Shown here: piece after piece, positions 1,083 through 58,848 of the stretch
How the letters are laid out: every line of letters starts with the position of its first letter
How positions within the stretch are numbered: position 1 is the stretch's first letter
Origin: Paraphysomonas bandaiensis
Taxonomy: Eukaryota; Protista; Chrysophyceae
Assembly (NCBI GenBank): GCA_965644295.1
Contig: CBFFRP010000331.1
Location: 1 to 58,848, forward strand
Length of the DNA: 58,848 bases
Reading direction: 5' to 3'
Notes under the pieces: generated by a model
The model's database searches: none
Told to the model about the DNA's origin: nothing
The model's input: the letters and a program-made list of their open reading frames with translations, nothing else
Made by a program: the position numbers and the translations under genes

Positions 1083-1586
1083 GTCTATATATAGTGTTAA
1101 ACAGGTCTGTTGTTCCGTCTATCTGTTGTAATTGTTCGGTGTTTAAGTCAGGGTTGGTTGATTGTTTGGTTAATAGGGTCGGTTGATTGTTTGGTATAAA
1201 GGGTTGGTTGATCGCTGGGGTTAATATGTATAGTATTATTTTATTTTGATTGCATTTTTTTTGACATTTTTGTTGAAAATATTTATTTCTGATATTTATT
1301 TTTTAGAAAAAAGTTTTTTTTAAAGAAAAATGTTGTAAAAAATGTAGTGTATACTGTTACAAAATTTGTGAAAATAAGATTTTTTTTGCATTTTTTATTG
1401 TGAAAGGTGACACGACATTTTTTATGCAAAAAAGTGTATAAAAAAATGTAATGTACAATATTGGAAGCACTTGTACGTGATAAAGAGTAATACCATAGGG
1501 GCAAGGGTTGGTGTAAGTTAATAGTTTGCATGGTCACGGTTAACACTGTACAGGGGGTGAAATCCCCCTCTCCTCTCTCTTTTTTT

Positions 1587-4500
1587 AAAGCTGCTTGTGC
1601 GTCGCCGCAAGCACCAAGGTGCAACCACTTCCGTTCTTTTTGTGTGATATGAAATTCGCCTTTATCGTGTGTCCGTGGACTCACCGGCGCTTTTGATCTG
1701 GGGGTCTCCCTTTGGGATGGGTCTCCATTGGTTTTGGAGGGGGCTCAGCATTCTGAATTAGGGTCCTGAGTGCACCTAGTTCCAGATGTGTGGGTTGGGA
1801 GTGGTGGGGATTGTTGGGAGGAGGAGTTGGGTTTGTAGTATGTGTTACTGTGCTCCTGTGGGGCCGCGGGTGTAGATAGAGTTGTCGAAGCCGTCGGCGT
1901 TGTGGAGGTCTGGGCAGTCCAGTGCTCTGTCGGGTAGGACCTGTGAGGTGTGCACGTGTGTCTGGAGTCGGATACGCTGTGGGGGGTCTTCGTTGGACCC
2001 CTAGTAGTCGAAGGACTCTCGGACGTTGTCTTGACTGACTGCGTTTCGGACGGGGTCTCGGGAGTAGCCTGGGCGGCCTTTTGGACATGGTGATATAGCG
2101 ACAACCGCGATCCTGTAACATAAGCTTCGCTGCAGTGTAAAGCGGTTGCAGGAGATTAATAACCACTGTTTCTAGGTTCCGTAGACTGTGAGCCGTCAGG
2201 TGGTTGTGTATGTCATCTCCGAAGACCGTTTCCAGTTGGGCTGCTGTGATGGTTCCAGTCCAGTATCTCTCGACCTGTGGGATGGAGGGATTCCAGGCTC
2301 TGCTGGAGAGTCTCCGTAGTGCAGATGTGATCCAGTTGGGTAAGGTCTGAGTTCTCTGTATTTCGTGTAGCACATTTTTATGCGATTGAAATGCAGTTTC
2401 CCTTATTTGGGTGATGGATTCATGTGTGCAGTCGAGGCACATATGTTTTAGGGAATCTAGTCGAAACCCGCAGTCAGAGCATGCGGCTTTGGTCAGGTCA
2501 AGCCCCTGTTTGGTTTTGGCCCGGTTCCTCCCTATGCAGAAAGATTTGTCCCATGTCAGTGCCGTGTTGAGAATTCTTTGGCGTAGATTTGAGCTGAGTT
2601 TGTCTTTGGATGCACTGCCATCCGCTTGAGCTAGTTTGCGCGGGAGGTGTACTCCGCTATTGGTCCAGTAGCCAGGCGCTCGATCAGGATTGTTTCCGTA
2701 GCGTTGATCTCTGGTTGAAGTGTAGTTCTCAAGTGTCCTTAGGTCGCAGAGATCTTGGAAATCAGTAAGGAGTGGGCTAGAGTAGTATGGCCGTCTTGTA
2801 CTGTGCAAACGCCAGTGCCATAATCCAGCGGTTAGTAAGCGTTCAATGGCACTGTCAATCGCAATTGTACAGACAGTGTAGTTATTTTTTCCAAGGATGC
2901 GATCGACTTCATGCCAGTCTTCACCCGCGACTGCGTCCGCAATATAGATGCCCTTGTCCTCAAACGTCCACTCCGTTTCATCTGTGGTACGTCGTTCGGG
3001 ATGGGACCTCACCCAGGTCACCTGTCGTTTGCAATCTCTACTGGCCGCGATGCTTTCGAGTAGTACCCCTTTTGCACGGTGACCGAGAGCTCTGCGTCTT
3101 GTGGAGAGTGCTTCCTCAGTACGGGTGCACACTGCCTGACAGTCTGTGTGGCTTCTTATGTGTTCGGGAATGCGTGTTGAGAGTATAAGCCCCATGGCTG
3201 TGCCTATGAGTTCATATGCGTATGAGTCCAAACCTGGCACATCACGAAAGGGTGTATCTAGTCGTAGTATTATGGTTGTACCATCTTCCCAGGCATTTTC
3301 TGGGGGTAAGTAGACGACCGCTGCACCTCCTCGGTGTGTCCATCGTGTTCGCGGATTGACATGAGTGAGGCGACGCGTGGAGAGCGCACTGGCTGTGTAT
3401 GATCCATCTGTGAAGATTGCCTTGAAAGTATCTGGTTGGACGCTATTAAGGCCGAGTTCTTGTTTTAGATTGGTCAGCATGTGTTCATCCTGTGGTTCGG
3501 GGGGCTCAGGTTGCTGAAGGGTAAGGCCCAATTCCGTTCCCCATTCCCTGAGGCTGAGAACATAGTGGTGGTATTGGGGCTGTGGCTCTGTTGTCTGAGT
3601 GAGTAGAAAATGTGCTGCTTGACCTGCTTCTCCCCCGAGGGTTATTGCGCGCTGTAGAGATCCCCATTTTTGCTCCTGCGCCGAGTCTGAGAAACGTTTC
3701 ATACCTAATCCGTTGTGCTTGAGTGAGAGGTAGATCAGTTCCGTGGGGTATCCAGGGCCTAGACTGAGGGCCTTTCTGTAGAGGGTTGCGCAAGCAGCGT
3801 CAATTTCTCTGTACCAGTGTAGCGGCCATGAAGCTTTGGTGGCTCTATAGAGCAAAGTCGGTATGATTTGGGTCTCGATAACCATGACTTTACAGCCGGC
3901 TGAGGCCTGTTTAATCCCTAGGTGTGTGGTCACGACTTTCAGGTATTTTAGACACCAATCATGGGAGGCCTTGTCTGTGATTGTGAGAGGAAGGTCTGCT
4001 CCGAGGTAATGTATCGACTCTAGTGATGTTTGGATAGGGACTGGGTGTGGACGCCACGACCAGTCGTAGAGAATGATGTAGCCAATGGGGTCGGAGGACT
4101 TGTTGGAATCTTGTAGGATCGGAAACACTGTGCAAACTACTTTGGGGATAGAGAGTTCCATTCCCGAAAGTACGCAGAACGCAGATATTTGTTGGGCAAT
4201 GAGTTGGGCAGCGTGTATGGATTTAGCTATTGTGTTAAGATCATCCGCGAAGGAGATCTTTATTTCGCCGGTAGTCGGAGTCGTGAGTTGAATAGTTGGT
4301 AACGTTGGACTCGTTGTTGACAGTTCAATGTCCAGCCACGTGAGAAGGATGTCGTAGAGTGCCACCCAGGCGCATGTGGATTCTGTGCCCCCTTGGGTGA
4401 TACCCCTTTCGGCTTCGAAACCCAGACTGAATAGTGCAATGAAGTGGCCGTCTGCGGACAGGAGGTCAAGGAGAGAACGTGGCTCTATGTTGTTTGCCAT

Positions 4501-4791
4501 GAATGGTGTCCAGGGAAATGTTAGACCGCCGGCATCTAAGTTGCCAAACCAGTCAACTACATCGTCCGGAACGCCCAGTCGTGCCCACGCGAGACGCATG
4601 AGGTTAGGCGCAATTGAGTCGAAGGCCTTCTTGAAGTCCCAGAGTGTACATATATGCTGGTCGCCTTTTCGTCTTGCTTCTTCTGCAGCCGCGAGTACCC
4701 TTAGTATCGCTGTGTCCGTCCCGTTCCTCCAGCGATAACCATGCTGGGACGGATGCAAAACTTTCTGTTCCTCCCATACGGTAATTGCCAA
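1587..4791 (-). mobile_element. 5'-truncated non-LTR retrotransposon; the distal 3' UTR is cut off by the virus-like element
   Basis: GC-richer block encoding RT-RNase H-CCHC. Its 3' UTR motif is shared with many dispersed copies. Confidence 0.9.
1681..4791 (-). CDS. Non-LTR retrotransposon ORF2 (partial): reverse transcriptase, RNase H and CCHC zinc finger
   Basis: RT motifs QHGYR, DFKKAFDSI, GITQGG, FADDL and YLG. RNase H motifs FTDGS, E, TDCQ, WVRSH and ADAVA. Zinc finger CSDC...HMCLDC. The frame is open for 1036 codons with no ATG start. Confidence 0.93.
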   Translation of the reverse strand: MAITVWEEQKVLHPSQHGYRWRNGTDTAILRVLAAAEEARRKGDQHICTLWDFKKAFDSIAPNLMRLAWARLGVPDDVVDWFGNLDAGGLTFPWTPFMANNIEPRSLLDLLSADGHFIALFSLGFEAERGITQGGTESTCAWVALYDILLTWLDIELSTTSPTLPTIQLTTPTTGEIKISFADDLNTIAKSIHAAQLIAQQISAFCVLSGMELSIPKVVCTVFPILQDSNKSSDPIGYIILYDWSWRPHPVPIQTSLESIHYLGADLPLTITDKASHDWCLKYLKVVTTHLGIKQASAGCKVMVIETQIIPTLLYRATKASWPLHWYREIDAACATLYRKALSLGPGYPTELIYLSLKHNGLGMKRFSDSAQEQKWGSLQRAITLGGEAGQAAHFLLTQTTEPQPQYHHYVLSLREWGTELGLTLQQPEPPEPQDEHMLTNLKQELGLNSVQPDTFKAIFTDGSYTASALSTRRLTHVNPRTRWTHRGGAAVVYLPPENAWEDGTTIILRLDTPFRDVPGLDSYAYELIGTAMGLILSTRIPEHIRSHTDCQAVCTRTEEALSTRRRALGHRAKGVLLESIAASRDCKRQVTWVRSHPERRTTDETEWTFEDKGIYIADAVAGEDWHEVDRILGKNNYTVCTIAIDSAIERLLTAGLWHWRLHSTRRPYYSSPLLTDFQDLCDLRTLENYTSTRDQRYGNNPDRAPGYWTNSGVHLPRKLAQADGSASKDKLSSNLRQRILNTALTWDKSFCIGRNRAKTKQGLDLTKAACSDCGFRLDSLKHMCLDCTHESITQIRETAFQSHKNVLHEIQRTQTLPNWITSALRRLSSRAWNPSIPQVERYWTGTITAAQLETVFGDDIHNHLTAHSLRNLETVVINLLQPLYTAAKLMLQDRGCRYITMSKRPPRLLPRPRPKRSQSRQRPRVLRLLGVQRRPPTAYPTPDTRAHLTGPTRQSTGLPRPPQRRRLRQLYLHPRPHRSTVTHTTNPTPPPNNPHHSQPTHLELGALRTLIQNAEPPPKPMETHPKGRPPDQKRR

Positions 4792-6117
4792 TTACATTAA
4801 TTGGTTTTTAAAGTGATACTATATCACAACACAAGCTTCTCAATATAAAGCATGTATGTCTGTATGAGTTATAATTATTTCATTAAGTACCACATGCCTT
4901 CGTAATTATCGATGGATGTGATGATCAACTCTATATAGTATAAAGTATAAAGAGTAACTGCGTGTATTTTCCTCACATAGAAGAAATTTGTAGTCTTCTT
5001 ACTACCGACGGGTAAAAAGGCATGATTCAAGATACTTCCTAATATGCATCGTGGTTGGTTCTCTACAGGCAAAGTGACCGTGGTATGTTGTTTTTGTCGA
5101 GTTTCGCATATTGATCAGCAATCAAAAGCTGTATTCAAGGTATTTGAATTATAATTTGAAGATGGAAAATATTTTTCCACCTCGAGTTAATATGATTGAA
5201 TTGTCTGCAATTCACACAAATTTTAGTGTAAACAACTAGTCAAAGTAATAAATGGTGTAATCAATATATAAACTATTAAAACAAACTTTCGAACATAATT
5301 TAATTCATAGAAGTAGCAGGGCTGCCTATCAACTAACTGCAATCATTAAAATTGGGAGAGTGTTGAAAATATTGGAAATGATGATGACAAGTGCTAGTTA
5401 TAATCAAGTTAATAACAATGAAAGGAAATGTCTTCTAAATCAACTGGGAGTTATATGTGTGTATCACAAACATATAGTATGATTAGAACAAAATTTCAAA
5501 CATGCGCAAAACACCAATAATATGGGATTTAACTAAATCCAATAGACTACAGACTACGCATATAAATAATATAGGGTTACTTTTTAGTAAATATTATTGT
5601 TATAAAATGTGGAAAAGTAAACTACTTTAAGGATATAATTCTCTATTCTCGCTTTCACATTGGACGGGAGATAGATCCTGATCTGGCTGATTTATTTTGC
5701 TCATAATAATATATATATATGGCAACGATGATTTTCTGATTTTTTTGTCGGCACGAGAAACTCCGCATATTTGTCTAGGATTTTTTCGGCATAAAAGCCT
5801 TTTGCTGATGACGATGGACAACATCATAATATATATCCTTTTCTACTTCTCAAATTGCTTACAAAGCTTAGCTTTAATTTCAGCTACAATGTTAAGATCT
5901 AGAAGCAGCATAATATATATATATTATATTAGGGATCTATTATTTAACCTACTAGTCAATTTTGTGTAATTTTCTAGTTACACCAAATTGGTGTAAAAAC
6001 CTAGTAATTATTTAATAATTTTTATTTTCAGTTTACAATGACTAGGGTGACATATGTATCCCCTGAGGACATAATTAAGATATACATGTTGAGAATAATA
6101 TTTCCCATTATATATTA

Positions 6118-6205
6118 AAAGTCTTATTATTAGCAATAGTCGATAAGAATCAGCACCAGCTTAGTAGCTAGATGAAAACTAGTCACATGCTAGATAGAAA
6201 TTAAA
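6118..6205 (-). repeat. Solo distal part of the retroelement 3' module
   Basis: Matches 9375-9460 and 57852-57930 (ttattagcaatag...gcacca..ttagtagctagatgaa..ctag). Confidence 0.7.
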
Positions 6206-6379
6206 TGCTGATATTCTTATTAGGTTCGTAAACTACGATAAGTAACAGAAAATGAGCAAACACTCAAACTGTTCAAGACAACACGACGCTACTCCAGCAA
6301 CACTTCGCACACGAAAACCCTAAAATATCCTATCTTTTACCACTGAACAAACCGCCCCAGTACACACGGAGTTGCATTT

Positions 6380-7328
6380 CTATTGCTCATGGGGCACAGG
6401 TCGATAAGTCTCCAAACAAGCATCCACACTGAAATCCTCAGGACTCTTATTGAAGGTGGTGATCATAGAAAATTCATTCTCTGTGCTATAGGAGGAGACA
6501 ATAAGCTTGGAGAGTCGCTCTGCATCCTGTCAGTACATGTAAAAGAATGTTCGCCACAATAATGTCGTAGCAAGGAAGTACCTGCTTTTCTATTTGCGGC
6601 AGGAAATCAGTGCGGGTTAAAGTGAGGCCTTTGGTGCTGTTCAAATCGGTGTAAAATGACATGCATAACCAAGGCTGGGCAGCTGTTGGGTCCCTGCGGA
6701 CAGGTACATACGAAAGTAAGGGTGTTAACCTCTAAGAGACAACTTCATACTTTTTGTATTCTATGGACAGGAAATGATAAACGAATAGGCAAAAACTTAG
6801 TTGAACATACCTTCTAAAAATGTTAAGAGAAATAAGCTGTCTTGAAACTGAGATAGCAGCCACATGTGCCCCCCTTCTTTAAAGACGGGATAGATAAACA
6901 TGGGGCTGAAAGTGCGAACTTGTTTAGAAGTTTGATAGAGTGCAATGAAATATGACCGTACCAAGATTTTGCACGCTCTAGAATCTGAAACGAGTCTGTA
7001 GACGAAATCACATCAGCACATACGTTATTCTTGTCTTTATGATAGGCAGTCCATATATGCGACACGGTTTCAGGTGTCTCCTGAAAAGTCGTATAATTAA
7101 AACTCTCTTCTTCCCGTATATCAACTACCTGTTCCAGTTTAGATATGTCTGTAATCTCATTGAGCTTTCTGCGAATAAAAGAAATAAAGTACACGCCTTG
7201 CAGCAGGAGAGATCATACGCTACACGAATAGTGTACCTGGGAGAAGGAAGGGAGAAAGAAAGACGTCGTCTTTGAGCTGCACCAGATACATGGACACATC
7301 TCTGCACAGCGCGATACGCGAATGCCAT
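6380..7328 (-). CDS. ATP11: Mitochondrial F1-ATPase assembly factor 1 (multi-exon)
   Basis: Transit-peptide-like N-terminus. Spliced segments read SPRKLNEI, IWTAYHK, PMFIYPVFKEGGHMWLLSQFQ, LTFLE and AQPWLCMSFYTDL. Stop codon at 6380-6382. Confidence 0.85.
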
Positions 7329-7666
7329 GTGAATTAAGCGGGTTTGAGCGGTAGAGAAGTGGTTTTATGGAGTCGATACAGAGCTCGCCGTGTTGCAATG
7401 GTCGTGGAACAGCCAAGTGCAAATTACACAATACAATAACTATACAGCATGGAATACAGAACTCATCAAGTCTACAGTTCACACTACACTGTACTGCCAA
7501 TGATGTCATCGTTTAACATGAAGGACTTATATGATTGGCGTTCATACTGCCAAGGACTAACTTTGCATTTTTGTTATATAAAAACATCATTCAGCTTCGA
7601 TGAGATGCGGGATGGTACGATCGAGCAGTACTTCTTAGCAGGATCTGGATAGTTCTGTTACTGGCT

Positions 7667-9073
7667 ATGCGCCATAGCGGACTCACAAGCGGCGGTATTG
7701 AATATTCTCCACTGCTTAACACGAAACAAAAGCAGCACCAGCCTGTCATTTTGAATGCAGACTTGATCCCAACGAGATGGTACGAGAATGCTACGCTCTT
7801 TGGGCCTATTGTAACTGTGGCTTCATTGCTACTTGGAGTGATATTTTATTGTGCGGATAACCAATGGAATATACAGACGAGTATATTTTATACCATATCC
7901 ACCCTACTCGGAGTGCTGTTTTATGTCCCAGCCAATAAGTCCACTCTCGGCGATATATTTTCTATTTTATACTACGTATATGGCGCATTCTTCTTTGCTG
8001 GTGTAGTTGGTACTTATGGTGGCTGGCTAGTGGCCAATGCGCCGGAGATAGCCGCAGAGGAACGTCGAAAGTTGATTGCCGATCACGCCGAGGACGTAGA
8101 CGGGGATGGAGTGGTGGGTGTGTGGGATCATGTCACACACTGGAAGAACGTTCTTCTTCACAAGCTTGGGTGGGAGCATCATCGCACCAAGTACTTAACC
8201 GTGGGTGCTGTGCTTGTGTGGATTGGCGTGGGTGTCTTGTATGGGATGTATTTTGAGCGGTGGGCCGTCAAGGACTCCTTTGTCTTTGCCCTCAGCACTG
8301 TATCAGCTGCAGGTCAGGTCCCACCTCCATGCATTGGGGATGACCCCACAACTTGTGATATTGGTACTCTGCGAGAATTTTTGCTGAGTGTGTATATGAT
8401 CATTGGTTGCCCTCTTTTCACCTTCGCCCTTGGCCAATTTGCCGGCTTGATGGTGGAACGAGCCATAAAACGACATGAAATTGCGATACTCCGATATCCT
8501 CTTACAAAGGAGGAGTTTCAATATGCTGCTGATCTATACGCAGACAACGATCCAAATGTTTTAAGCTTAGGAGAGTTCACGATTCTTGAACTTCTTAGAC
8601 TGGGCCGGATCACGACGGATGATTTGGATCAGATCAAAACGTTCTTTAGTGCAATAGATGAACACGAAGAAGGACATGTGAACAGACCTATGCTGGTTAA
8701 GCGAAATCTGATGAGACCGTATGGGTCGTTTGATGATGCAATGCTCGATGTTGTGAGCAATGAAGGGGATGATTTATTTCACATGCTCACAGAAAATGAC
8801 CGCTCGAATTCGCTCCCCCCTGAAATTACCGAAGATATGTACGAACAGGTAGAAGTAAGCTTTCTAGGAGATGAAGATGCATCCCGTGCATCTTGTTCTA
8901 GGACAGGTGATAGGGATAGAGAGTCAGATAGCAATACATCTCATCGCACCATTAAGAGGCTACGATTGGAAGAATACAATGAGATTGTTGTTCCTCTTGC
9001 ATTCACGACGATGCTTGATACCATTGACTCTCGTGAGGGCTATTACTGTGAAGTAGACGAAGATTTGGTATGA
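7667..9073 (+). CDS. Two-pore (TPK/K2P-like) channel-like protein with EF-hand-like motifs and atypical filters
   Basis: Two TM-pore-TM modules. EF-like loops DVDGDGVVG and DEHEEGHVN. Segment LSLGEFTILELLRLGR resembles the plant TPK C-terminus. Confidence 0.75.
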   Translation: MRHSGLTSGGIEYSPLLNTKQKQHQPVILNADLIPTRWYENATLFGPIVTVASLLLGVIFYCADNQWNIQTSIFYTISTLLGVLFYVPANKSTLGDIFSILYYVYGAFFFAGVVGTYGGWLVANAPEIAAEERRKLIADHAEDVDGDGVVGVWDHVTHWKNVLLHKLGWEHHRTKYLTVGAVLVWIGVGVLYGMYFERWAVKDSFVFALSTVSAAGQVPPPCIGDDPTTCDIGTLREFLLSVYMIIGCPLFTFALGQFAGLMVERAIKRHEIAILRYPLTKEEFQYAADLYADNDPNVLSLGEFTILELLRLGRITTDDLDQIKTFFSAIDEHEEGHVNRPMLVKRNLMRPYGSFDDAMLDVVSNEGDDLFHMLTENDRSNSLPPEITEDMYEQVEVSFLGDEDASRASCSRTGDRDRESDSNTSHRTIKRLRLEEYNEIVVPLAFTTMLDTIDSREGYYCEVDEDLV

Positions 9074-9374
9074 ATCCTATTCACTATTCTGATTGATATA
9101 GTGTGGCTACTTCTCACTGCTACATAGGATTATGCTACTTGCGCCGTGTGGTTTTGAAATGACACGAGCGCATGCAGCCAGCTAGGAATATTTTTTTCAT
9201 TTCGGATAAATTCAAGAAATGCATGTGTGGATTTTCGTATCATCTGGGTTGAATTAAACACGTTACTATTTATAGTTGAGAAATTCAAAAGTATATGATA
9301 ATAACATAAATCATAGCTAATTTTACTAATAGAATGGAGTGTATATGTCTGGTTGTGTAAGACTCTTATATATA

Positions 9375-9652
9375 TTGAATGTCTGATTATTTAGCAATAG
9401 GCGTTGAAAGCCTGCACCAATTAGTGGCTAGAAGAATGCTAGTCATACTAGTTAGACTACTACCCGTAACTAATCAATACAAACTCTTTTATCCTACTAT
9501 TTAACGCTACAGAAGCTGCTTGTGCGTCGCCGCAAGCACCAAGGTGCAACCACTTCCGTTCTTAGTGTGTGTTATGAGGCTCGCCATGATCGTGTGTCCT
9601 GGGACTCACCGGCGCGTGTGATCTGGAGGTCTCCTCTTGGGATTAGACTCCA
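9375..9652 (-). mobile_element. Short 3' fragment of the non-LTR element with an intact 3' module (reference empty target site at 9506-9519)
   Basis: Encodes PKRRPPDHTRR-stop, followed by a UTR similar to 1587-1700 that continues through the distal module. Confidence 0.85.
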
Positions 9653-9691
9653 CTCGCTATATATATGTAATGATAGATAGCCTTATGTACC

Positions 9692-10981
9692 TCACGGGGA
9701 CTGACTTATTAGCCTTATGGCAGTTAGGGGAAACAGTAATATGCCCTTCTGAGATTTGCGATCTGGTGGCCTTCCTTTAGGCATTGTTCCAAGTGGCTCG
9801 GAGGTATGTGGATGAAGGTCTTGCAAAAGGTTATGGCCTACTGTGAAGAAGCGTCGAAATCGGCTCTTTTGCTGTCTTAGCCAGCGGTAGAGAACACATG
9901 CAAGAGGGTGTATAGCTGTACAGGGGTGGGATGTGAGGGTCATCCGGTGTGTCCAGCTACAGGGAGTCGAGAGGGAGTGTGATGGTGCAAGAGAGGCAAC
10001 ATCTGATTGAGGAGAGTGAGACTGCGCAACAGAACAAGAGTCACTGAGGTCGAGTACTCTGATAGACCTATGCACGAGATGATCGTGATGATGATGATGG
10101 TCTGGAGGAGACACTCGGACGTCCTCAGCTGCCCTTGTTAGTGTCTGTGTTGGTGCAGGGGGGTACAGACTGAGGCATAGAGAGTGTGTGTAAGGAAGAT
10201 GACGGCAAGGTATCAGAGACGAAGGGAGAGACGATAGTTTGTCCGGGGGTTTTCTAGGAGGAGGTAGAGTGTACTGTGTGTGTGTATGACACTGCAGTGG
10301 TGTTATGAGTGTGTTGGACAGAGAGAGAGAGCTGGAGATGTGTCCAACAGTACAGGTAGACAGGTACATGGACATGGTGATGTGTCCAACAGTACAGGTA
10401 GACAGGTACATGGACATGGTGATGTGTCCAACAGTACAGGTATACACGGAATGGTATACATCCTGTAGGACACAGTAGTACAGTAGTCGAGTATACCGTA
10501 TGCGGAATACAGTGTCTATCCAATGAGATGGATGGGCTGTGGGGGTGATAGGTGAACAGGGTGAGGGGGTAGCCTGCTTGGTGCATAGACCACAGACAAA
10601 CCATGTTGGGTTGGGTTGAGTGGGCGGCAGAAGGCAGCCCTGTTGCACAGTTGAGAGGGATCGAGAGTATTCAGTGATTGTATAGGGGGTCCATGGGGGT
10701 CGTTTTCGTGAGCCTGCTCGCACGAGCCATGTTCTGAGAGGTTGTAGCCTTAGAAAGCGATGGGTGAGACGAAGTTGTCTGCTGAGGGGATAGCACGTAG
10801 GTGCGGTCAGCGCTGCATTGGTGCAGGCACGTGGTTTAACTGAAGTAGTTGAGTAGGGTGAAGGTTGCAAGGCCAGGCAGGGGGGCTTGGAGCGTGTACA
10901 ACATGGTGTGACAGGTAATTTGTCGGAAGCGTGGTGGTCAACAAAATGCAGCAGTAAGGGAGTGTAAAAGGCCCTGGGCAC
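9692..10981 (-). other. Retroelement-associated low-complexity ORF (Pro/Thr/His-rich) containing RKPPD and PKGRPPD
   Basis: 429-codon ORF without an ATG start. It shares the PKGRPPD motif with the LINE ORF2 end. No recognisable domain. Confidence 0.4.
10337..10441. repeat. 42-bp tandem repeat, about 2.5 copies
   Basis: gatgtgtccaacagtacaggtagacaggtacatggacatggt repeated. Confidence 0.9.
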
Positions 10982-11109
10982 ACTGATGCCTAACCCTAAT
11001 CGAATAGTAAGACTCTTATGTATCTATTGTTCAGTATATATGCTTAGTCTGTAGCCTATTGTGTTTAGTTAAATCCCATATTTTTGGGGGTTTGCGCATG
11101 TTTGAGTAT

Positions 11110-12600
11110 TGAAAGTCTTTTTATTTAGCAATAGGCGTTAAAAACTCATACCAATATAATGACTAGTTGAATGCTAGACATACTAGTTAGACCTCGTCGC
11201 CGCAAGCACCAAGGTGCGACCTCTTCCGTTCTTAATGTTGTTTGTGCATTTCGCCCTGCTCGTGTGTCTTAGGACTCACTGGCGCGTGTTGTCCGGGGGT
11301 CTCCCCTTGGGATAAGGTTCCGCCAGGCTGTGAAGTACAGGGTTTTGCATTAAGGTCCTGAGTGTACCGAGCTGAGAGGTTGATGGTGTGGTGGAATGTG
11401 GCGAGGCACCCTTCAGCGACGTTCTGCTCGAAAGCATTGCAGCAAATAGCGATTGTACAAGGAACGTAGCATGGGTACGATCACACCCCGAACGACGTAC
11501 CACTGATGAGTCTGAATGGACATATGAAGACAAAAGGAATTTACATTGCCGACGCAGTAGCAGGAGAGGACTGGCTTGAGGTAGATAGACTACTCGGACG
11601 ACAAAATTACACTGTCTGTAAAATAGTAGTGGACCAAGCCATTGAGCGAAAACTCACCGAGGGTTTATGGCACTGGCGCCTAACTGGGGAACGACGGCCG
11701 TATCGCACTAGCCCCCTGCTCACGGACTTCCGATCCCTCCGCTATCAACGGACGCTGGAGGCTTACACTACCCTCAGAGAGACCAACGCTACGGTCACAA
11801 TCCCGACCGGGCTCCTGGATATTGAAAAGACAGTGGAGCACTACTTCCGCGCAAACTGGCGCAAGCAGATGGTGGACCATCAAAGGACAAATTGAGTTCC
11901 CACCTGCGCCAGCGAGTACTCAATGCAGCACTGACATGGGACAAATCTTTCAGAATAGTAGGAAGAAACCGGACGAAAACCAAACACGGACTCGACCTGG
12001 CTAAAGTCGTATGTTCTGACTGCGGATTTAGACTAAACTCACTCAAGCATATGTGTCTAGACTGTACAAATGACTCCATAACGCAGATAAGGTGGGGTTC
12101 ATATGTGTGGTGGGCGGTGTTCCAGTCTCGGTTCATCTGTGGATTCCTAGTAGTCTTATAGCACCTTTGGGCGTTTCCATTTCTGTCTATGTTTTGGACG
12201 CGGTCGCGGTAGTAGCCTTGGGGAACCTTTCTGTAGGGTAACGTATCGTCTACTTCGATCTTGGATCATTAGCTTTGCTGCAGCGAAAAGCGGTACAAGT
12301 AATCTGATGACCGCTGATTCGAAGCTACGCAGTCCTTGGGATGTCAGTGAATTATGGATGTAATCTCCAAAAACCGTCTCGAGTTGTGCAGTTGTGATGG
12401 TACCCGACGTCTGGTAGAAAGTGATTCGTGTGTGCGTATGCAGACAGACAGCCTTACAGTCCCTGTTTATCGGTATGTGTGCAGGGAGACGCGCAGATAG
12501 TATAAGCGCCATTGCAGCTCCCATGAGTTCGTATGCATACGGGCCAAGTCCAGGAACGTCGCTGAAGGGTTTCTCTAATCGCAGTATTTATGTGGTACCG
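11110..12600. mobile_element. Scrambled, degenerate copy of the non-LTR element with an internal inversion
   Basis: Minus-strand 3' end (PKGRPPD, 11276-11400), a frameshifted plus-strand RNase H-to-CCHC segment (11420-12090), and minus-strand C-terminal and RNase H pieces (12156-12600). All are clearly homologous to ORF 1681-4791. Confidence 0.9.
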
Positions 12601-14065
12601 GTCTACCAGTCATGTTCCGATTATGTTAATGATACATATACAGAACTCCCAGTTGATTTAAAAGAGAATTTCGTATGGAGCACAGTGGTTATACAATGAC
12701 GATGTCGTGGATAGAATGTATTGTTATTGGAGGGTAACAGTGGTATTGGAGGAGAGTAACAGTGGCTTGTCTCTGCGTTGAACACCACACGTAGACAAGG
12801 TTGCATGGCTCAAGTAGCATGCAACACAACAGCGGCTGACGGTGGTAACGGTGAGATGGAGGTCATGGAAGATAAGGGTTGAAGGAGAAATAGTGGCATA
12901 GTGTTAGAGGAGAGAGTAGATTCAGTGAGGGTGTGTGATCTGGAGGGCGTATACATCAGAATACTGGAGTGGTAGGAAGGAGCGTATTAGGGCTGTGTAG
13001 TGGTGGGAGCCGTATGTTGGGAGTTCCTACTGCATGTACTCTGCAAAATATACGGTGTTTTGCAGTGATATAGGGTGCGTGTATAATATTGCTGAGTATC
13101 GGTGTCGGATATGCAGACTGCGGGGATTGCACTGGGGGAAGCCATGCTGTGGGGCAGAGCCACACTGCCAAGGCTGCATCCCTGCACTGGAGTGTGTGAA
13201 GGCTCAATTGTTTGATGGGCGGCCAAAGGCCTATATATGTAGCTGTATGGAAGTTGTGGTGCATTGGACAATTTGTAGTTGTAGTGTGGTCACTGTAAGG
13301 TGGATGTGGTCATGTGGACTGTGGTAGAACGTGAAAATAGAAGATTTCTTAAATGGTGCCTGCTGCTTCCTAGAGCTAGAGAATTATTCGTTTTCTCCAT
13401 CACATAACAAAGCTTACGTCGAGCTTCTCGTGACTATGCACGACTCTTTATAAGCCTAGCCTGGTATTGGTTGAGCCCCCTTTTCTTGTAATCCCATATG
13501 GCCAATGCAAGTATAGTGTAGATCTAGCTAAGGGTTGCTTGATGCCGATACACAAAACAATCTATACGTTACTAGCTCAGTCACTACCGCACGCCCTCGG
13601 AATCGGACAGAATTATAATATTATATAGTGTGTGTAATAGGTGAAAGTACATTATATTATTATAATACAAAATATATATGTATGTACTTAACATAGTGAA
13701 TGTCTATCAGGCCAATCCACAGCTTGTAACTATATATTGAGTGCAACGGGTCGTCCCTTGTAAGTGATAGGGAACAGGTTTTTCATATATTATGCTATGG
13801 GATATATTTTTACATATAGAGCTTAACTGATGCGTTTAACTAGAAGGGATATATATATGTCGTGGTCGTGTTACTGTAAGTATATATACATACGGCATGG
13901 CTTGAATGCAAGTGTAAGCCGTTGATTTTATACGTGACTTAGAGAACTAGTTTTTTTTTATACGTTTTAACTTAATTCTTTCTTTCCACGATGACACCAC
14001 ACGGGACACTTTGGGGATGGAAGTGTTTCTTCCTAGGGAGTGGACTACACTCAAAATGACTACAC

Positions 14066-14480: not shown

Positions 14481-15609
14481 TATATGATAAGCTTTATACT
14501 TTTATAGATACTAAGATCTCTACGTCGGCACCATCCAACTCGTCAGGAAATGATATCCGGTCTAGCAGAACTTCGTGATCTAAAATATGAGAAGAAATGA
14601 TGATCCTCCACCTGTTTCTGATCCTGAACCAACTAGTAATGTGCCTCCAGCGGCTGTTGCCGCGTCGTCTCCGAACATAGGTACTGAAACTACTGTAAGT
14701 AGTAGTGGTGAACATGCGTATATGCAATGTATCCAAAATCAGGCTATTCAGTTAGTTGGAGCGTTTACAGTCTCAAGAGAGGCAGACGTAGCTATAATAA
14801 ATAAATACTACTAATAACAACTACTATACTAGCGACTTTTAACTTCTCAGATAAAAATTATACAGTAAAATAATGACTCAATAATTAGATATGAAACCTG
14901 GTGAAATCACTTTTCCAGGTTTTGGTATTACCTCGACTTAACCCAAAAGCAATATGGCTATAGCTCTAATTTGCTCTTCACTAGCATTGACAATGGTTGA
15001 ATCTAACCCTTCTAGCATTACTCATAGGGTCGTTCTTACGGACTCTCGTTCTCTATATCAAGCGCCTCTTCATCCATAATAATCAACAATATAAATAAAT
15101 AACAATGAATATGTCTAGAACTACAATACTATCTACAAGCAACTTTCAGAGTACAGAAAATGCATCTTATTATCAATAATCAATATTGTACATATTATAC
15201 ATATGATTCCCAGGGCAGAGGAAGGCCTAGAGGAAATGACCTTCATCCATATACATTACTAATAGCTCAGCCTTATCACAACTGATTCATCATTAATGCA
15301 TAAGGGAAGATACATTCAGTATTCTCATTATTGTAGTTGAAACCTTGTATACGTACTTCCAAGTAGTGTTCAATAAGCAATAAGTACCTAATGAAATACA
15401 TAAAGTACAACTGTATTGCTGGATAATCTGGCACTACACGTCTATCAGCGTGGATATCAAACCCGGAATTCTCTTGTAATTTTTTCCAGCCTTAACCATT
15501 AATATATTTATATAATAGGAACATATACATCAATCATAATATATATCTTCATCATTGAACTTCATTATTGGTAATCCTGTCTTTCTTTGTCTTTTGAATG
15601 GATATATAC

Positions 15610-17134: not shown

Positions 17135-18516
17135 ATATATATGTATCAATGATTAGCATGAATTGTCATAGTCCTAATATATCATATATCTTACTGTGAA
17201 ATATGGCAATAATAATAATATTCAACCTATGTTGTACAAAGAGTATGAACAAACTTAAGCACATAAAATAGAGAGCTCACATAGTATAAAATAACCAGAT
17301 AGCTGGTTATTACGTTTTTTATGCTTCTTAACATTATTATTTTTTGACATTATTAACATAGATGCAGATACTTATAAATTATACTTTTACAGCAATAGAA
17401 CTCTTTAAAATCTTGGTAAAAAGAATGCTTAAAAGTTAAGGTGTTTATACTTTTTATATGTTGTGGCTTATCATGATTATTTACTTATTCAATACATACA
17501 TATTACTTAGGAAATACTTAAGATTTACTTAAGTTTTCTTTAAAATATCACCAGTGAAGATTGATCACATTTAGGAGACTGAAGCAACCTTCCATTATCC
17601 CGCCAAAACAATAGCAAGTGCGATTGGAATTGATTTTTCCAAATTACTGATCAACTCACTCGCATGTGATGGTATACTTAAATACCCATGAATCTGCACT
17701 CTCGCATCATTCAAGTCAACAAAAAATTGAAACCCCTGAAAACACTGGTCGTGGTATTTCTCAAAAGTAGGGTTGGAGTTCTGATTATCTGAAAATAAAT
17801 GTACTCCACGGAATTGTAGTTGAGATCAGGATTGAGAAGCATTGATCTGAGAATTTCCAGGTTCAAATCTTCTGCTGACAACTGATTGAATTTCGGATTA
17901 ACAGAAATATGGATTCAATTCTTCTGATGTCTGTTTCCAAGTTATTCTACTCAATTTCAACTCCCATTTCTTTTGCCCTTGTGATATCACTGGAAATACT
18001 CTCCGTGTTAGGGTAGACCACAATCGCGTCCATCAAGGTCCGTTTGGAAGCTTGTGGAAGTTTTTTCAATCCTTCAAGTTTATTATAAATCACAGCTTAT
18101 TAATCGATAATAATGAGACCTTTTTACGAGTAAGCGCATGCTTTGCTGTAAGTCCATATTAAAATATAGTCCCTGAGTCACTCAACTTCTCAGTTTATTA
18201 TTATGAGCATCTGGAGCCCACTCAAGCCCTGAGGAGGTTTTGAAAAGGTAGGATTTTCCAGTGGTTTTTGGTAGTTTTTCCAGTGGTTTATAAGAACACA
18301 AACCGCCCATTTTGCATTGGCATCCATCTTTCTCACCAAGAGGAGACTGTCGCACGGTCATCTCCAAGCGATATAAACAACAACTTCACAAGCAACAGTG
18401 TCACAAGACTCTCCTCTCTGCTTCCATGTTTCATGCAGGAGAAATTGTTCAATATTAATAAGTGGCGCAGTCAGTTCTTGTTGAAGGCCTGATCTCGCCT
18501 TTTCTACTATTGAAGT

Positions 18517-45200: not shown

Positions 45201-48200
45201 TATGGACCCAGAGGAAATGAGCCGGCTTCTTATGTCGCGTATAAGCCAATGTCCACCTGCCGCCCAGGTATTCAAATGGAGTGATGCGAGTGCGTTGAAT
45301 ATATTGACAACAATGTGTCTGTCAACAGGCCATAGTCGAGTGTAGTAAACGGTGTGCTGCTTTGAGGGATGATCTTGAGCGCGATGAAGTGGAGTCGATT
45401 TTCTTACCTCTGGAGCCTATGCTGAAAGTGCATGTGAGTAGGAGCGCGATCCTCTAGTGGTGGTTGACTTGATTTTTTCTCAGAATGAGCTCGAAGTTGA
45501 CAATGAATACCTAACTCTTTGTGGTCTCTATTGGTGAGTATTGTATCGTACTTTACATACGGGTTTTAACCCCATCCTAGCAATCTCGGTCTCACGCAGA
45601 AAAAGTCCACTCTATCTAGAAAGCTATTAAGCATGGCAACTGTCCCACTGGTGAGTGTATTTTGTGTGTATCCTGTGTGCATATTTCCGTTTCATTCAAC
45701 ATCATGAATTATCATTTTAGATACGCGGTGCATCAATGCAGGAGTCCTCGTCATCTCCTATGCCACAAGATAGACATCAGCAGTTTCAGAAGTCGGATGC
45801 TGGACGTACTTCCAATGTTGACGACGTACTTAGTGTTCTTAAGTCAGATGAAGATGTGAGGCGAGAATTAATTCGGGTAAGTGAGCCTTGTTTTCGTGGT
45901 GGTATCAGAAGCACAAAAGCTAACCAATTCTTAGGAAGAAGAGGAAGAATATGAGCAGCGTAGGATAGAAGAAGAAGAGGAGGCGTTGCAAGCGGAACGG
46001 GCGAATCTATACAAGGAGGGTTGGATGGAAAAGAAGAGCCCTGCGCGACATAGCACTTGGCAGCTGCGATGGTTTAAGCTTTCGACTCGGGCGCAACAAG
46101 GCGACGAAGGGCTCGTGTACACTCACACGCTTTTCTGGTACAAGAAAAAGGGGGCGTCTTCTCTCAAGTGCCATGATACTACATCGATATGGTAATGTTT
46201 ATAGGGCATTTATGACAATGATGTAACTTTGAATTCAGTGGTATGCAACTTTTGTCATCTCCTCGTTCTCTGGCATACCTCACAGGTATTTTATTTCGGC
46301 TATATTATGCGCATTTGCTCTGTATGACGCCATTCCAGATGACTTCAATATATATCTGGCTCATGACCCAGAAGGTATGCGTGGGGTGCCTATAAAAGAG
46401 GTAAGGAAATGTTGAGGAGATGAGTACGGTTCTAATGATTTAGCAGTGGGATGCCGAATCCAAAGATGGTGAAGCGGGACCATCTTCGCTTTTGACCCAG
46501 ACACATGGTCATTCGTTTAGTTTTCTGCTTCAGCTGGAGGGAGGCGACAAAGGAGTTACAGGTGGTGACAAGGATGTTATTCTTCGAGTGAAAACCGTAG
46601 ATGACCTCATTGATTGGATGAATTGTCTTTCGACGGTGGGTTGCATCATACAACATGCCCCATTTTTACCGCTGATATAGGCCGCTAAGTTGGAGTATGA
46701 TGTCGTGAGTGGCGTCTGGATGAAGGGAGAACGCAAAAAGAAAATTAATCCAAAAGCTTTTCTCAAGGCTACATCACTACCAAAAGATGCACGCAAGAAG
46801 GCTGTGAGTCTAAGTTTTCTGTATTAAAGCTGTATTCATTTTGTATTTTAGGCATTAGCGAGGAGTGTATCTGCCGTATCCACGAACCATTCCTCAGCCA
46901 CAGCTGCAGCTAGAGCCCCGAGTGCACTCTCCACTCTCGACTCCTTCGGTGATGAGCTGATGGAGGAAGAGGATGATGAAGACGAGGAAGATCTAGATGA
47001 AGAAGACGGTGGCGAAGAGGTAGAGGAGGATGGTGCGACCGAGAGAACTGTGCTACATCTGGAAGGCACCTTGGAAAAACAGAGCCCAAAAAATAATTTA
47101 GTGTGGCAACCACGATACTTCAAGCTGGTGACTCGAGGGCCAGGTGAGCAGTTGTAATGAATCTCATGTGTAGAGATCAAATGTTGCTGTTAGCTGGCGG
47201 GACGGAGTACGTCTTAACATGGTACAAAAAGAGGGGAGCTTCCGCCATAAAGTCGTTTAATGCAGGCGCAATTACAACTATGGTGCTGCTCAGATCGCCG
47301 AAACCTGTTGTTTACAATCCTGGTGAATTCTGTACCCATTCATGATTAGTTTAAGTAAACTTGATGCAGATGATTTTAAGCTTCACATGTCACGAGAAGA
47401 CCGAACATTATCGGGGGTGGTTGTTAAAGAGGTATTGGTTTTGTCGTTCATTCAATATTCTGTGACATTATATCCGAAACAGAAAGGGTCTGACACTACG
47501 TCGTCGAGCTACATCTTCATGCTTAGTTTGGACAACTCAGAAGTAAAGGGCGGAGCCAAGAAGAGTGGTACAGAAAAGGATAAAGATGTCCTATTGAGGA
47601 TAGATAGCGCAGAGAAGCTTATCAACTGGATGAATTGTCTTGCGGAGGCGGCATCTCTTGAATATGATAGTCTTAGTGGATGCTGGGTTAAGGGTAACCG
47701 GATCAAGAAGACGAACCCCAAAGCATTTTTGAAGTCATCTACAATGCCTCTCCCAGAAAGTCACGACGCAAGTCGTCATGTGAGTGTACTTCTACATTTG
47801 TAAATTTCTGCCTGACTGCTTACTAGACCTTACCTCGGAGTGCCTCTGCCACGGCGACTGCTGGTAGTACAGTGCCTAGTATGCCGTCTATAGAGGATGA
47901 AGATGATTACGCTGAGGAAGATAATGAATATAGTGGCCTTGATACTTTCAACTCGATTGCGATGTCCGGTGAATCCCAGCAGCAATTTGACAGGACCTCG
48001 GACTTGTACATGGAAGGCTTGATGGAAAAGCAGAGTCCAAAGAATAATTTAGTGTGGCAGTTGCGGTTTTTCAAGTTAGTTGAATCAGGTTTGTGTTGAG
48101 AATATGATAGATATATCAGTTTGAGTACTCTAATTTAGTGGATGGAAAGAACTACATATTTTCGTGGCATAAAAAACAGAATGATGCAGCTCTGAAGTCC

Positions 48201-49474
48201 TTCAGTGCGGGTGCAATTACTATGATGATGTTGCTTCGGTCACCAAAACCTGTCGTGTACAACCCAGGTAAATCCTGTATAGAACTGAAACAACGATATC
48301 ATCGATTTTACAGATGATTTCAAATTGCATACACTATCGGAAGACCGAACATTATCGGGGGTGGTTGTTAAAGAGGTATTGGTTTGTCGTTCATTCAATA
48401 TTCTGTGACATTATATCCGAAACAGAAAGGGTCTGACACTACGTCGTCGAGCTACATCTTCATGCTTAGTTTGGACAACTCAGAAGTAAAGGGCGGGACC
48501 AAGAAGAGTGGTACAGACAAGGATAAAGATGTCCTATTGAGGATAGATAGCGCAGAGAAGCTTATCAACTGGATGAATTGTCTTGCGGAGGCGGCATCTC
48601 TTGAATATGATAGTCTTAGTGGATGCTGGATTAAGGGTAACCGGATCAAGAAGACGAACCCCAAAGCATTTTTGAAGTCATCTACGATGCCTCTCCCAGA
48701 AAGTCACGACGCAAGTCGTCATGTGAGTGTACTTCTACATTTGTAAATTTCTGCCTGACTGCTTACTAGACCTTACCTCGGAGTGCCTCTGCCACGGCGA
48801 CTGCTGGTAGTACAGTGCCTAGTATGCCGTCTATAGAGGATGAAGATGATTACGCTGAAGAGGAAGATAATGAGGGTGATGACAAGAGCTACCAGGTTGA
48901 TGAGGAAAGTCATCAGTCAGTGAACTCGGGAGAGTGGAATTCAGATGGAGATATTGCCCCTCCTCCACCACCTCCGTCGTCCCCCCCTCCATCGTCCCCT
49001 CCTTCAACGCAGTCTCCGAAACAGATGTTGAGTACAAAGCCTGTGGAAACAACTTCTGGTGAGTGAGTACTTTTTTTTATACTGATCAGCTGATTTTTGT
49101 ATTTCGTGGCATTTGATGCAGAAAATGTCACAGACCGGTTGAGTGACGGGAGCAGAGATCTCCACAGCTTCAACAGTGGTAACCCCAGACGAAGTAGCAA
49201 TGAGTCCGTGGACGATTCGCTGCGCAATGGCAGTAGCGCTGTAGGGTCCGATAACGGTATCGAGTGTGCCGACGGGGAGGAGGCATCTGGCATTGATGTA
49301 GGTGGAATAGTGCTGTCGGGTTCGGAGAACAACAGTGACATTTACCCAATGCACGAACGTGAAAGCGATATATACTCTCTGGCCAGCGAAGGAATCCCAG
49401 ATGATGATGAGGACGATGAATTGCGTGGGGATGGGTCAAAACCCGTAGGGTGTACGTCTTGTGCAGTCATGTAA
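42213..49474 (+). CDS. Large multi-exon protein: two PH domains, a Sec6/EXOC3-like helical region, three further PH domains and a C-terminal CaaX
   Basis: PH signatures (G.LSKK...WQKRYF...W; GWLMKKSP; GWMEKKSP; G.LEKQSP; G.MEKQSP). FYTHAPTDTWELFHHHI resembles Sec6. The protein ends GCTSCAVM-stop. Confidence 0.75.
47395..48860 (+). repeat. Recent intragenic duplication (47395-47915 vs 48339-48859), including introns
   Basis: Near-identical sequence at a 944-bp offset. Confidence 0.95.
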
Positions 49475-51159: not shown

Positions 51160-51590
51160 TAACCACAAGTCGACCTCGCACCTTTTCGGGGTATTCTGGT
51201 AGATAAGTACCGGAGATATTTCTCCTGGAAACTAACTTGAGCCGCATATATGTAGTCAGCAGATATTGCTCCACCCACTCATAGACTAATGCTTGTGTGG
51301 CACAACAAGAAGGGCACTAATCAGTGTCACTTGTGTAGACGTCTTTAGGCTTTGACGAATAAGCAGGCATCCGGGGTATTGGGCTGCCTACTGAAGTCAA
51401 GCATCCGAACTAGTTCACCTTTTAAGGAGAGAGGGCACAAGTGGTTGCACCTTGGAGCTTCAGTGACGCACAAGCAGCTTTCGTAGCGCTAAATAGTAGG
51501 TATCAGAGTTAAGCACTATAAATTGTTTTGCTACAACATTAGTTGTGACTCTGAAACGCCTACAATTGCTAACAATCAGACATTCACTAC
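51160..51590 (+). mobile_element. SINE-like element (body B plus 3' module), opposite orientation
   Basis: gtggttgcaccttgg...gacgcacaagcagctttcgtagcgctaaatagtagg. Confidence 0.7.
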
Positions 51591-51869: not shown

Positions 51870-52375
51870 ACCTCACTCACCCCAGACATCTACCTCTTCC
51901 ACAAGTTCCCCTGTACAAAAGTGGAAACGCCACGATGTAGCCTCCGCCCGCTGCTTCTCTTCCCCAAGCCCAACCTACTGCCCGCGCCATCTCCAGACAC
52001 GACGGCGCCCCAATCCACCCCCTCGCCCATGTTTCTCAGCCTAGGTACACGCGACTCACTAATTCAGAATACTGTGCCTCCACAAAGTCCTGTAGAGCTC
52101 TACCCCAAGGGACGCCCCCCTGACTAACCCCATCTGCACTTCCAGGACTAACGTCCACAGAGATCTTCTCCCTGACATACAAGAACGGAAGTTGTCGCAT
52201 CTTGGCGCTTGCGGCGACACACAAGCAGCTTCCGTAGCGTTTTATTGTAGGATGCGAGAATTTGTACTAATTAGTTGCAGGTAGAGGTCTATCTAACTTG
52301 ACTAGTTTTCATCTAGCTACATATCTGGTGCTGACTCTTTACGCCCATTGCTAATAATAAGGCTTTCATATTCCA
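51870..52375 (+). mobile_element. 3' fragment of a related non-LTR element
   Basis: Encodes LGTRDSLIQN...YPKGRPPD-stop, followed by the complete 3' module. Confidence 0.85.
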
Positions 52376-56899: not shown

Positions 56900-57838
56900 A
56901 TAAAAATAGCCCGAGTTTGAAAATTTGGACAAGAGCCGATACTCCTTATCCCTAGAGGATAAATTGTAGCTTATCCTCACGATGTTGAAAACCTAATATC
57001 TCGATTGCATAGCTACCTGTAGCTTGCTTGTTGTAAGAATAAAGAGGTATTCCCTAATTAGCTGTCTAAGAAAGAGCACATTGTTTCAAATTAATGATAT
57101 ATTATATGTATACGGTATACGGTATACGGTGTGCTTTTCGGGAATAACAATATAGTTATATTTAACCACGGGCAATAAGGAGGCTATATCGTCCTGCGCT
57201 CAAAATTTAGACAAGGGACGATACTTCTTATCCCTAGGTTAAATTGTAGCTTATCCTCATGATGTTGAAAAGTTAATATTACATGTATAGTAGCATGCTT
57301 GCTGTATTAAGAAATAGATGTTCCTTGATTAACATTAATAACACAAATGAGAACTCATATAGTTTCAAATCAATGATATGTATACTGTAAGTGTGATGAT
57401 AAATGTAAACAGTTGAAGGTGAGAGAGAGGCTTCTTATTGCCTTAATTAGTATCATCATCACATTTATATACAGCAGGCTTTACCTCTGCAAGTGCACCT
57501 GATCGAAAGATGTGTGTATGATATGAGACACACAATATCCTGAGAAGCACGATATGGCTGCAACCCTGAAACAACTGGGTGCCACTGCTCCTTACTACCT
57601 ATATAGCATCATATATGGTACTTAAACTCTCCTGTAATATTCTTGAAGTTGTTTCGAATTCCCGGATATGAAGACAGATCACTTGCACTGACCTCATTAT
57701 GATCTTCTACAGCAGTCGAAGAATGGAATATAACTTGGAGTTAGATGATCTGCTCTTGATATTAGGCTTATGATTGTGTTTTTTCTATAATTGTGTACTA
57801 TAATGAAATCACGTACATATGACTGTCATTATCATAAT
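56900..57838. repeat. Dispersed repeat family C with a local duplication (56920-57100 vs 57200-57380)
   Basis: cttatcccta..g..aaattgtagcttatcctca.gatgttgaaaa occurs twice. The region is homologous to 39390-40255. Confidence 0.75.
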
Positions 57839-57851
57839 GAAGATAGATATA

Positions 57852-57989
57852 TTGAAAGTCTTATTATTATCAATATGCGTTAAAAACCTGCACCAACTTA
57901 GTAGCTAGATGAATGCTAGACAAACTAGTTAGACCTCTACCTGTAACTAATCAGTACACACTTTTTTTATCCTACTATTTAATGCTACA
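57852..57989 (-). repeat. Distal half of the retroelement 3' module, interrupted after GCTAC(A)
   Basis: Collinear with 9375-9511 up to cctactatttaatgctac. Confidence 0.85.
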
Positions 57990-58848
57990 CACACAGAGAG
58001 GCCGAGGGACGAGGGATCGCTCTAAGCCGCTTAGGCATTCTTCCTGAGCCAGAAAGGCTCTCGTATCGTAATAAAACTTCGTTTTATTACTCTTTCCTTT
58101 TCACTCAATCTTTCTTCCTTTTCACTCTATCTTTAAATATAATTATTATGGCCTATATAATTATATTAATAATACTATACTTTAAATAAAAATTAATTAC
58201 TTTATATAATATTAAATAATTATCTTATAATAATATTAATAATACTATACTTTAAATAAATATTAATAATACTATACTTTAAATAAAAATTAATTACTTT
58301 ATATAATATTAAATAATTATCTTATAATAAAATTAAAATATGATTTTGGCTTTCTGGCATTTTGGCTTTCTGGCATTTTGGCTTTTATGAAAATTAGAAA
58401 AAGTTATAAAATAAAATTTATTATATAGTTTATGTTATAAAAAGCCAGTGCCATAATGCCAGTTGTGGTGATGATGATGATGGTGGTGTTGTAACAGTGA
58501 TGATGATCGTGATGATGATGGTGTAGTGATGATGTAAAATTTATTATATAGTTTATGTTATAAAAATCCAGTGCCATAATGCCAGTTTCTATTCAAAATA
58601 ATTTATCAAAAATATTTATTCTATTCAAAATATTTTTTCAAAATAATTTATCAAAAATATTTATTCTATTCAAAATATTTTTTCAAAATAATTTATCAAA
58701 AATATTTATTCTATTCAAAATATTTTTTCAAAATAATTTATTCTATTCAAAATAATTTTTACGTTATTACCAATTAAAAAATTATTAAAAAGCAAAATGG
58801 TTTAAAGAGATAATACACAGATTATAAAACGCTTTAGGCGTTTTAAAT
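57990..58848. mobile_element. Left end (TIR-like region) of a second AT-rich virus-like element, truncated by the window end
   Basis: Begins (AC)n-AGAGAG, followed by a short GC-rich hairpin-forming tip and then extremely AT-rich nested tandem repeats. No ORF lies inside the window. Confidence 0.5.

Follow-up and report, generated by a model that had tools for sequence, protein, structure and literature searches.

Two AT-rich elements, one with a predicted viral penton gene, meet complementary halves of one retrotransposon-tail site in Paraphysomonas bandaiensis: a candidate retroelement-targeting endogenous virus

The stretch of DNA analyzed here, referred to as the window, comprises 58,848 nucleotides of the chrysophyte Paraphysomonas bandaiensis (contig CBFFRP010000331.1 of assembly GCA_965644295.1). 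Each of its ends is occupied by the terminal part of an AT-rich element, and 56.4 kb of host DNA lie between the two. The GC content of this host segment is 42.8%, compared with 32.7% for the left element (1-1586) and 22.1% for the right element (57990 to the end). The segment is eukaryotic and carries ordinary genes, with Pfam matches of the PH-domain, phospholipase C and 6-phosphogluconate dehydrogenase types. Both elements abut the 3' tail of a long interspersed nuclear element (LINE), a non-long-terminal-repeat (non-LTR) retrotransposon, and the tail is interrupted at the same base in both places. The elements, the LINE and its tail copies are arranged as follows.

1-1586, minus strand: end of a multicopy endogenous DNA virus of the Polinton-like virus (PLV) or virophage type, cut by the window start; the tip reads A7-GAGAGAGG inward.
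119-820, minus strand: open reading frame (ORF) of 233 aa with a single jelly-roll penton (minor capsid) domain predicted over residues 1-155 from an AlphaFold model, followed by an acidic repeat tail.
1482-1492, minus strand: 11-mer TATTACTCTTT, 88 nt inside the left AGAGAG and also present 90 nt inside the right AGAGAG.
1580-1586, plus strand: T7 tract at the element tip, probably element sequence and not a target duplication.
1587-4784, minus strand: long non-LTR retrotransposon fragment with the reverse transcriptase (RT) region and an ORF at 1681-4599; the 3' tail is cut at 1587 and the 5' end at 4784.
9367-9652, minus strand: intact, 5'-truncated LINE tail copy with an empty target site at 9506-9519 (GCTACAGAAGCTGC at 9506).
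11105-11371, minus strand: tail copy in which an internal deletion of ~65 bp near 11195 removes the site.
25455-25873, minus strand: member of a related tail family that shares the ~66-bp core, without CGCTAC directly at the site and with a 6-bp deletion near 25563.
38356-38663, minus strand: related tail copy, site intact at 38372 (GCTACGGAGGCTGC).
51176-51590, plus strand: related tail copy in opposite orientation, site intact at 51474-51487 (GCTACGAAAGCTGC on the minus strand).
52181-52368, plus strand: tail copy in opposite orientation, site intact at 52225-52238 (GCTACGGAAGCTGC on the minus strand).
57844-57989, minus strand: the final 146 bp at the 3' extremity of the LINE tail, which breaks off at the site; 85.7% identical to 9367-9511.
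57990-58848, plus strand: end of the second AT-rich element, which starts CACAC-AGAGAGG and contains hairpins and tandem repeats.

The interrupted module is the 3' tail of an apurinic endonuclease (APE)-type non-LTR retrotransposon. All eight longer relatives found for the ORF at 1681-4599 (minus strand) are 2,000-4,000 aa in length, and PF03372 (APE) and PF00078 (RT) each occur in six of the eight. The best long relative aligns over 2125-4782 (tblastn E of 3e-154), and the RVT_1 match of the ORF itself is weak (E of 0.0045, below Pfam's cut-off). The LINE 3' tail continues through 1587. TATATATAT stands on both sides of the copy at 9367-9652, which is the pattern expected for a 5'-truncated insertion in a TA repeat. 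An initial annotation of this DNA had assigned the module to a retrotransposon 3' tail, and the RT/APE relatives together with the 5'-truncated copy bear this out. A second LINE copy, degraded and in pieces of both orientations, was observed at 11421-12686.

The site GCTAC-RRAR-GCTGC is intact in four of the window's tail copies. Four of the eight copies that cover it are damaged there, two by the elements and two by deletions. At least two of the window's tail families share the core of ~66 bp around the site, and loose contig ends in the sequencing runs point to a third. Tail copies make up 4.8% of the host segment, and the depths of contigs across 9353-9686 add up to thousands of times the value for unique DNA, a figure that is a sum and not a copy number. 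No Rfam family was found in the window, which means that the tail core does not correspond to a known RNA. The tail motif had no match in the viral contigs and none in the prokaryote genomes searched; two matches in metagenome contigs were dropped as unrelated GC-rich DNA with at most 26 matching letters.

At the left junction, CTCTCT occupies 1575-1580, a T-run extends to 1586 and the tail resumes at 1587 (AAAGCTGC). At the right junction the tail stops at 57988/57989 (GCTAC/A) and is followed by CACAC at 57990-57994 and AGAGAG from 57995. With the slash marking the break, the left junction retains the downstream half and the right junction the upstream half of GCTAC-R/RAA-GCTGC. The retained halves abut, with an overlap of 0 (+/-1 base) and nothing lost. 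The initial annotation had read the junctions as complementary halves of one target site; its coordinates, its intact sites and both junctions held on recheck. The probability that one end lies in any tail copy and the other at the same position is 1.8e-5 (+/-1 base) or 8.9e-5 (+/-7 bases), calculated post hoc per contig bounded by two such ends, with n=2 and uncorrected for the number of such contigs screened. An rve integrase duplicates its target, and the half-junctions of one site should then overlap by 5-6 bases; the overlap of 0, with one end of each element in view, agrees with the earlier view that the classical Polinton picture of AG termini with a 6-bp duplication does not explain these junctions. 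The spacers at the two junctions do not match the target.

A separate discrepancy was observed at 4782-4784. A microhomology of 3 nt marks the end of the LINE fragment there, and beyond 4782 the full-depth contigs of runs X1, X3 and X18 follow different unique DNA. Judged by eye, the loose end at 4784 keeps the LINE reading frame going. The block 1-4784 may be an insertion or rearrangement, perhaps polymorphic, that is absent from the X1, X3 and X18 contigs, or it may be a misjoin. This bears on the 56-kb spacing of the junctions and not on the junctions themselves. A derivation of both flanks from a single LINE insertion, with the contig taken as circular, was dismissed on inspection by eye, as 4784 and 57844 share no duplication.

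The left element carries the ORF at 119-820, for which neither Pfam nor PDB gave a sequence match except in the acidic tail. Relatives of ~146-265 aa were found in metagenomes; the low-complexity entries P0002 and P0006 were excluded from their alignments, and the fragment P0005 was used in alignment A2 only. An AlphaFold model built from 28 sequences had a pLDDT of 74.4. Viral capsid entries are the top 7 of the 50 structural matches listed for this model, with Z scores of 9.7-6.9, and the next row stands at 6.0. They are PBCV-1 chain a6 (Z 9.7, rmsd 3.7, 136 residues aligned), EhV-201 (8.7), aviadenovirus (8.6), PBCV-1 (8.4), the mavirus penton (Z 8.0, rmsd 3.6, 131 aligned), Sputnik (7.6) and an iridovirus (6.9). 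Only the mavirus entry among them is titled penton; the other capsid chains we take to be pentons as well. An earlier model from 4 sequences had tied pentons with nucleoplasmin cores (Z 7.6-7.0), an ambiguity that the 28-sequence model resolved in favor of pentons. A Foldseek search on the PDB gave no match at E<=0.001. The atlas neighbors of the ORF were viral clusters only, with V18-19 at 0.90 and 0.94 and V18-19 on 19% of one cluster. Searches for penton-based loci confirmed none in the viral contigs or genomes searched. From the modeled fold, the ORF is predicted to encode a viral penton. As a further observation, a 15-bp tandem repeat at 242-355 encodes the acidic tail; P0004 has a similar tail and most other relatives have none.

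The 24 listed sequencing runs that contain this DNA are marine or come from organisms given only as codes; contigs of 4 of them were compared with 1-10000 and 1250-1592. For run X3, two contigs cover 1529-1578 at depths of 207 and 350, against 41.8 for unique DNA (~13-fold). X3 contigs across the penton gene have depths of 114-200, and the subterminal region is thus deeper than the gene. This depth and the modeled fold lead us to conclude that a multicopy endogenous DNA virus, for which a penton is predicted, makes up the left insert. The bin depths of X18 fit one or more contigs with a summed depth of ~1464 (unique DNA 93; ~15 times) that end exactly at 1586. By this reading, obtained by arithmetic on the final three depth bins, the T-tract is common to most copies, so that it seems to belong to the element tip and not to a spacer or duplication. 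The initial annotation had placed AGAGAG just inside a 5-6-nt spacer at both ends: AGAGAG is indeed found at both, and what had been taken for a 6-nt T spacer on the left appears to be element sequence.

A second tip variant departs from the window sequence after 1546 in X3, X18 and X5. Its depth is similar to that of the first (615 vs 557 in X3), and a GC hairpin whose loop is GAA forms its end. Inspection by eye shows GAA-type hairpins also in the right element and at the window tip, on the strand that leads to the terminus. Neither of the two terminus motifs had a match in the viral contigs searched.

The two element ends gave no blastn match and are not inverted copies of each other; a reading of them as one inverted-repeat pair was rejected for lack of any inverted-copy alignment. 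They have AGAGAGG in common. The 11-mer at 88 and 90 nt was reached in 2 of 3000 Markov resamples and is altered in the second tip variant. A local alignment of the first 250 nt of both ends is weak, being reached by 13 of 500 resamples. The first 111 nt of the right element have a fold z of -2.33. The right element is likely a putative viral terminal repeat. It probably belongs to the terminus of a related element, or else represents the opposite end of an asymmetric one. The initial description of two AT-rich, virus-like inserts thus stands for base composition at both ends and for viral character on the left only, where the predicted penton and the ~13-fold depth speak for it; no gene was found on the right. 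A short 5'-AG repeat terminus is typical of Polintons/Mavericks, although a search of the literature found no paper for it. AGAGAG occurs at both element ends here, but the left end appears to extend beyond it through the T-tract.

Further features were noted in the host segment. A 1.5-kb element at 15602-17142 has 33-bp inverted ends (94%) and ATATAT at its start and end; it probably represents a non-autonomous DNA transposon that sits in a TA repeat. An ORF of 1687 aa at 30856-35919 (minus strand), which stands upstream of phospholipase C-like exons, contains a 3.2-kb Ser/Pro-rich higher-order tandem array with units of 84 and 69 bp. Recent internal duplications occur in host genes at 24304-25076 (332 bp, 97.6%) and 47250-48873 (686 bp, 90.7%). 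A dispersed repeat family, 70-90% alike, is found at 27728-27904, 39458-40213 and 56905-57778; it adjoins the right junction, and that locus is therefore repeat-rich.

The explanation we favor, held tentatively and with slightly less than even confidence, is a PLV family that prefers the LINE-tail core as its target and integrates via a tyrosine recombinase without target duplication, the right end belonging to a related element. Tyrosine recombination is favored because the junctions show no overlap and PLVs of the recombinase type mostly lack duplications. For targeting speak the two junctions that reach the site at one base without overlap or loss, the penton-like fold and the depth of the left element, the AGAGAGG and 11-mer common to both ends, and the damage at the site in four of eight tail copies. 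The viral genome would circularize and then recombine into GCTAC-R/RAA-GCTGC. The T-tract would be the true tip of the left element, and the right element would be a related virus. The target preference would be strong but not absolute. The ~66-bp core, present in at least two tail families and very abundant, would supply many neutral landing sites. The wider claim is that sequence-directed integration has arisen in a family of capsid-encoding endogenous DNA viruses, which would insert at a single base within the conserved 3' core shared by their host's most abundant LINE tails and so have a retrotransposon as attachment site; we consider this claim evenly balanced.

Several observations weigh against targeted integration of this kind. 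Only two junctions are available, and they were picked post hoc. No gene for pPolB, an rve integrase or a tyrosine recombinase was found in the 1.6 kb and 0.9 kb of the elements that lie within the window, and the ORF list of the right element (57990-58848) contains no recognizable gene. The target site folds no better than shuffles (z of -0.83 to 0.88) and forms no special hairpin. If a 5-6 bp duplication had arisen separately with each insertion, one would expect the two sites ~6 bp apart and not in coincidence; the far ends are outside the window. One X3 contig of unique depth passes the T-tract plus two As and then enters unrelated DNA (loose end, 1588). It represents a copy outside the tail, so targeting is not exclusive. 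The site-specific integration initially proposed survives as the same base at two junctions; strict specificity does not. No contig of X3 or X18 was seen to cross the left junction to 1592, though short contigs that run into high-copy repeats may be lost from assemblies. In favor of targeting, the bins of X5, an independent library that possibly samples the same locus, fit a contig of depth 10.8 that continues past the T-tract as far as 1592, matching the window, with only 6 tail letters, below the 31-letter bridging rule. Tallied by flank, the ends comprise both window junctions (2 of 2 at one base), the X3 flank of the left end (1 of 1 off target) and one window-like end deduced for X5. Flanks were examined for few of the roughly dozen left-end copies, and the others count neither way. 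We also observed that in the off-target X3 flank GCTA stands, on the other strand, seven bases away from the A-run, equal to the GCTA-AGAGAG distance at the right junction; this was noticed post hoc and may be chance.

The most serious alternative, which we consider unlikely but worth weighing, is that these are non-specific PLV or virophage insertions, two of which nearly coincided by chance in a tail that amounts to ~5% of the DNA, aided by selection for neutral sites. The off-target X3 copy fits unspecific insertion. In the parts of a Halocafeteria study that were available, PLVs and virophages are frequent in LINE-rich or repeat-rich loci (10.64898/2026.07.28.741278), and the Cafeteria study, as far as covered, places 18 of 29 insertion sites near repeats without sequence specificity (PMC8547959). 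Approximately 250,000 windows were screened overall, so rare coincidences arise. Windows bounded by two such ends are few, however, and per contig of that kind a match at the level of bases is expected by chance only at 2e-5 to 9e-5. The two further tail copies damaged at the same site also argue against coincidence.

Those same two copies, with deletions at or across the site, would be accommodated if the site were a hotspot for double-strand breaks made by a homing-type nuclease of viral origin or by a retroelement nuclease, where end joining, and not a recombinase, captured linear viral genomes. PLVs commonly carry HNH and GIY nucleases, and junctions without duplication fit such capture. 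End joining often loses bases, whereas the element ends appear complete and precise and the target halves have lost none, and we regard this explanation as improbable.

Marginally more doubtful still is the proposal that the LINE did the targeting. At the left, LINE RNA broken at the site would have been reverse-transcribed from the T7 of the virus end; at the right, a 5'-truncated tail would have joined another virus end. L1-type APE nucleases prefer to cut sites resembling TTTTTT/AA. The left junction, TTTTTT/AA with the 3' side of the LINE facing it, fits this preference, the LINE relatives encode APE (PF03372), and the LINE allele at 4784 was not seen in the X1, X3 and X18 contigs and is possibly recent. 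Yet two different accidents would then have had to strike one and the same base, and the sole clean LINE insertion in the window has a TA-repeat target and a full tail. The best-supported loose ends of tail copies, among those listed, fall off the site at 9482/9490 and 9555/9562, which argues against LINE priming. Finally, while repeats on both sides of the junctions and the absence of the 4782-4784 join from the listed contigs of three runs would suit an assembly chimera that linked the high-copy tail to a viral repeat collapsed in assembly at one or both junctions, we think this very improbable, given that the junctions offer no shared sequence on which an assembler could join, that the X5 bins are consistent with a contig across the left junction, and that a chimera would not favor complementary halves.

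Pokey in rDNA, Dada in snRNA and tRNA genes, Tx1 and R2 are target-specific transposons of multicopy repeats that follow a safe-harbor logic and have no capsid genes. The candidate described here likewise sits at a conserved site in a multicopy repeat; in contrast to them it is a capsid-encoding DNA virus, and its harbor is a retrotransposon tail. According to the portions of the literature covered, tyrosine-recombinase PLVs are common, mostly lack target-site duplications and are proposed to integrate as circles (PMC12220804; PMC4642659). Those of cryptophytes and other protists resemble the left element in being AT-rich, multicopy and endogenous and in having a single jelly-roll minor capsid protein, here predicted (PMC12220804, PMC4642659, PMC10120064). 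The text covered for them names no host target sequence, whereas one LINE-tail base was found twice here; a recombinase gene is not in view in the window. Retrotransposons near virus insertions have been noted in chrysophytes (PMC10120064, consulted in part). The mavirus-like elements of Cafeteria, in the sections seen, are AT-rich insertions often near repeats, and the mavirus penton is among the structural matches of the ORF at 119-820 (Z 8.0). They differ in having unspecific sites, duplications mostly of 3-5 bp and Ngaro inside the virophage, and the absence of sequence-specific integration in Cafeteria virophages is a further point against targeting here (PMC8547959). The PLVs and virophages of Halocafeteria seosinensis, a stramenopile, likewise often lie in LINE-rich and Mutator-like element (MULE)-rich loci, although the parts covered describe regional co-occurrence with target-site duplications and no fixed insertion base (bioRxiv 10.64898/2026.07.28.741278). 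Crypton DNA transposons, which are present in stramenopiles, integrate by a tyrosine recombinase via a circular form; in the pages available they have no capsid genes, and many carry direct repeats of 4-6 bp at their termini, a feature not seen here (PMC3212892). Within the literature searched (main texts, not supplements, with incomplete coverage), no report was found of a PLV targeting a retrotransposon tail, nor of target-specific Polintons or virophages.

The type of element is known, and the targeting of a LINE-tail base would be new if it holds. Should the targeting fail, there remains a PLV remnant of the ordinary sort whose penton family has not been described before. If the targeting is true, a defined attachment site would make the proposed circle-and-recombine route of PLVs directly testable. 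The locus would then represent a eukaryotic DNA virus that uses a safe harbor in the manner of a prophage, and it might point to a sequence-specific eukaryotic integrase.

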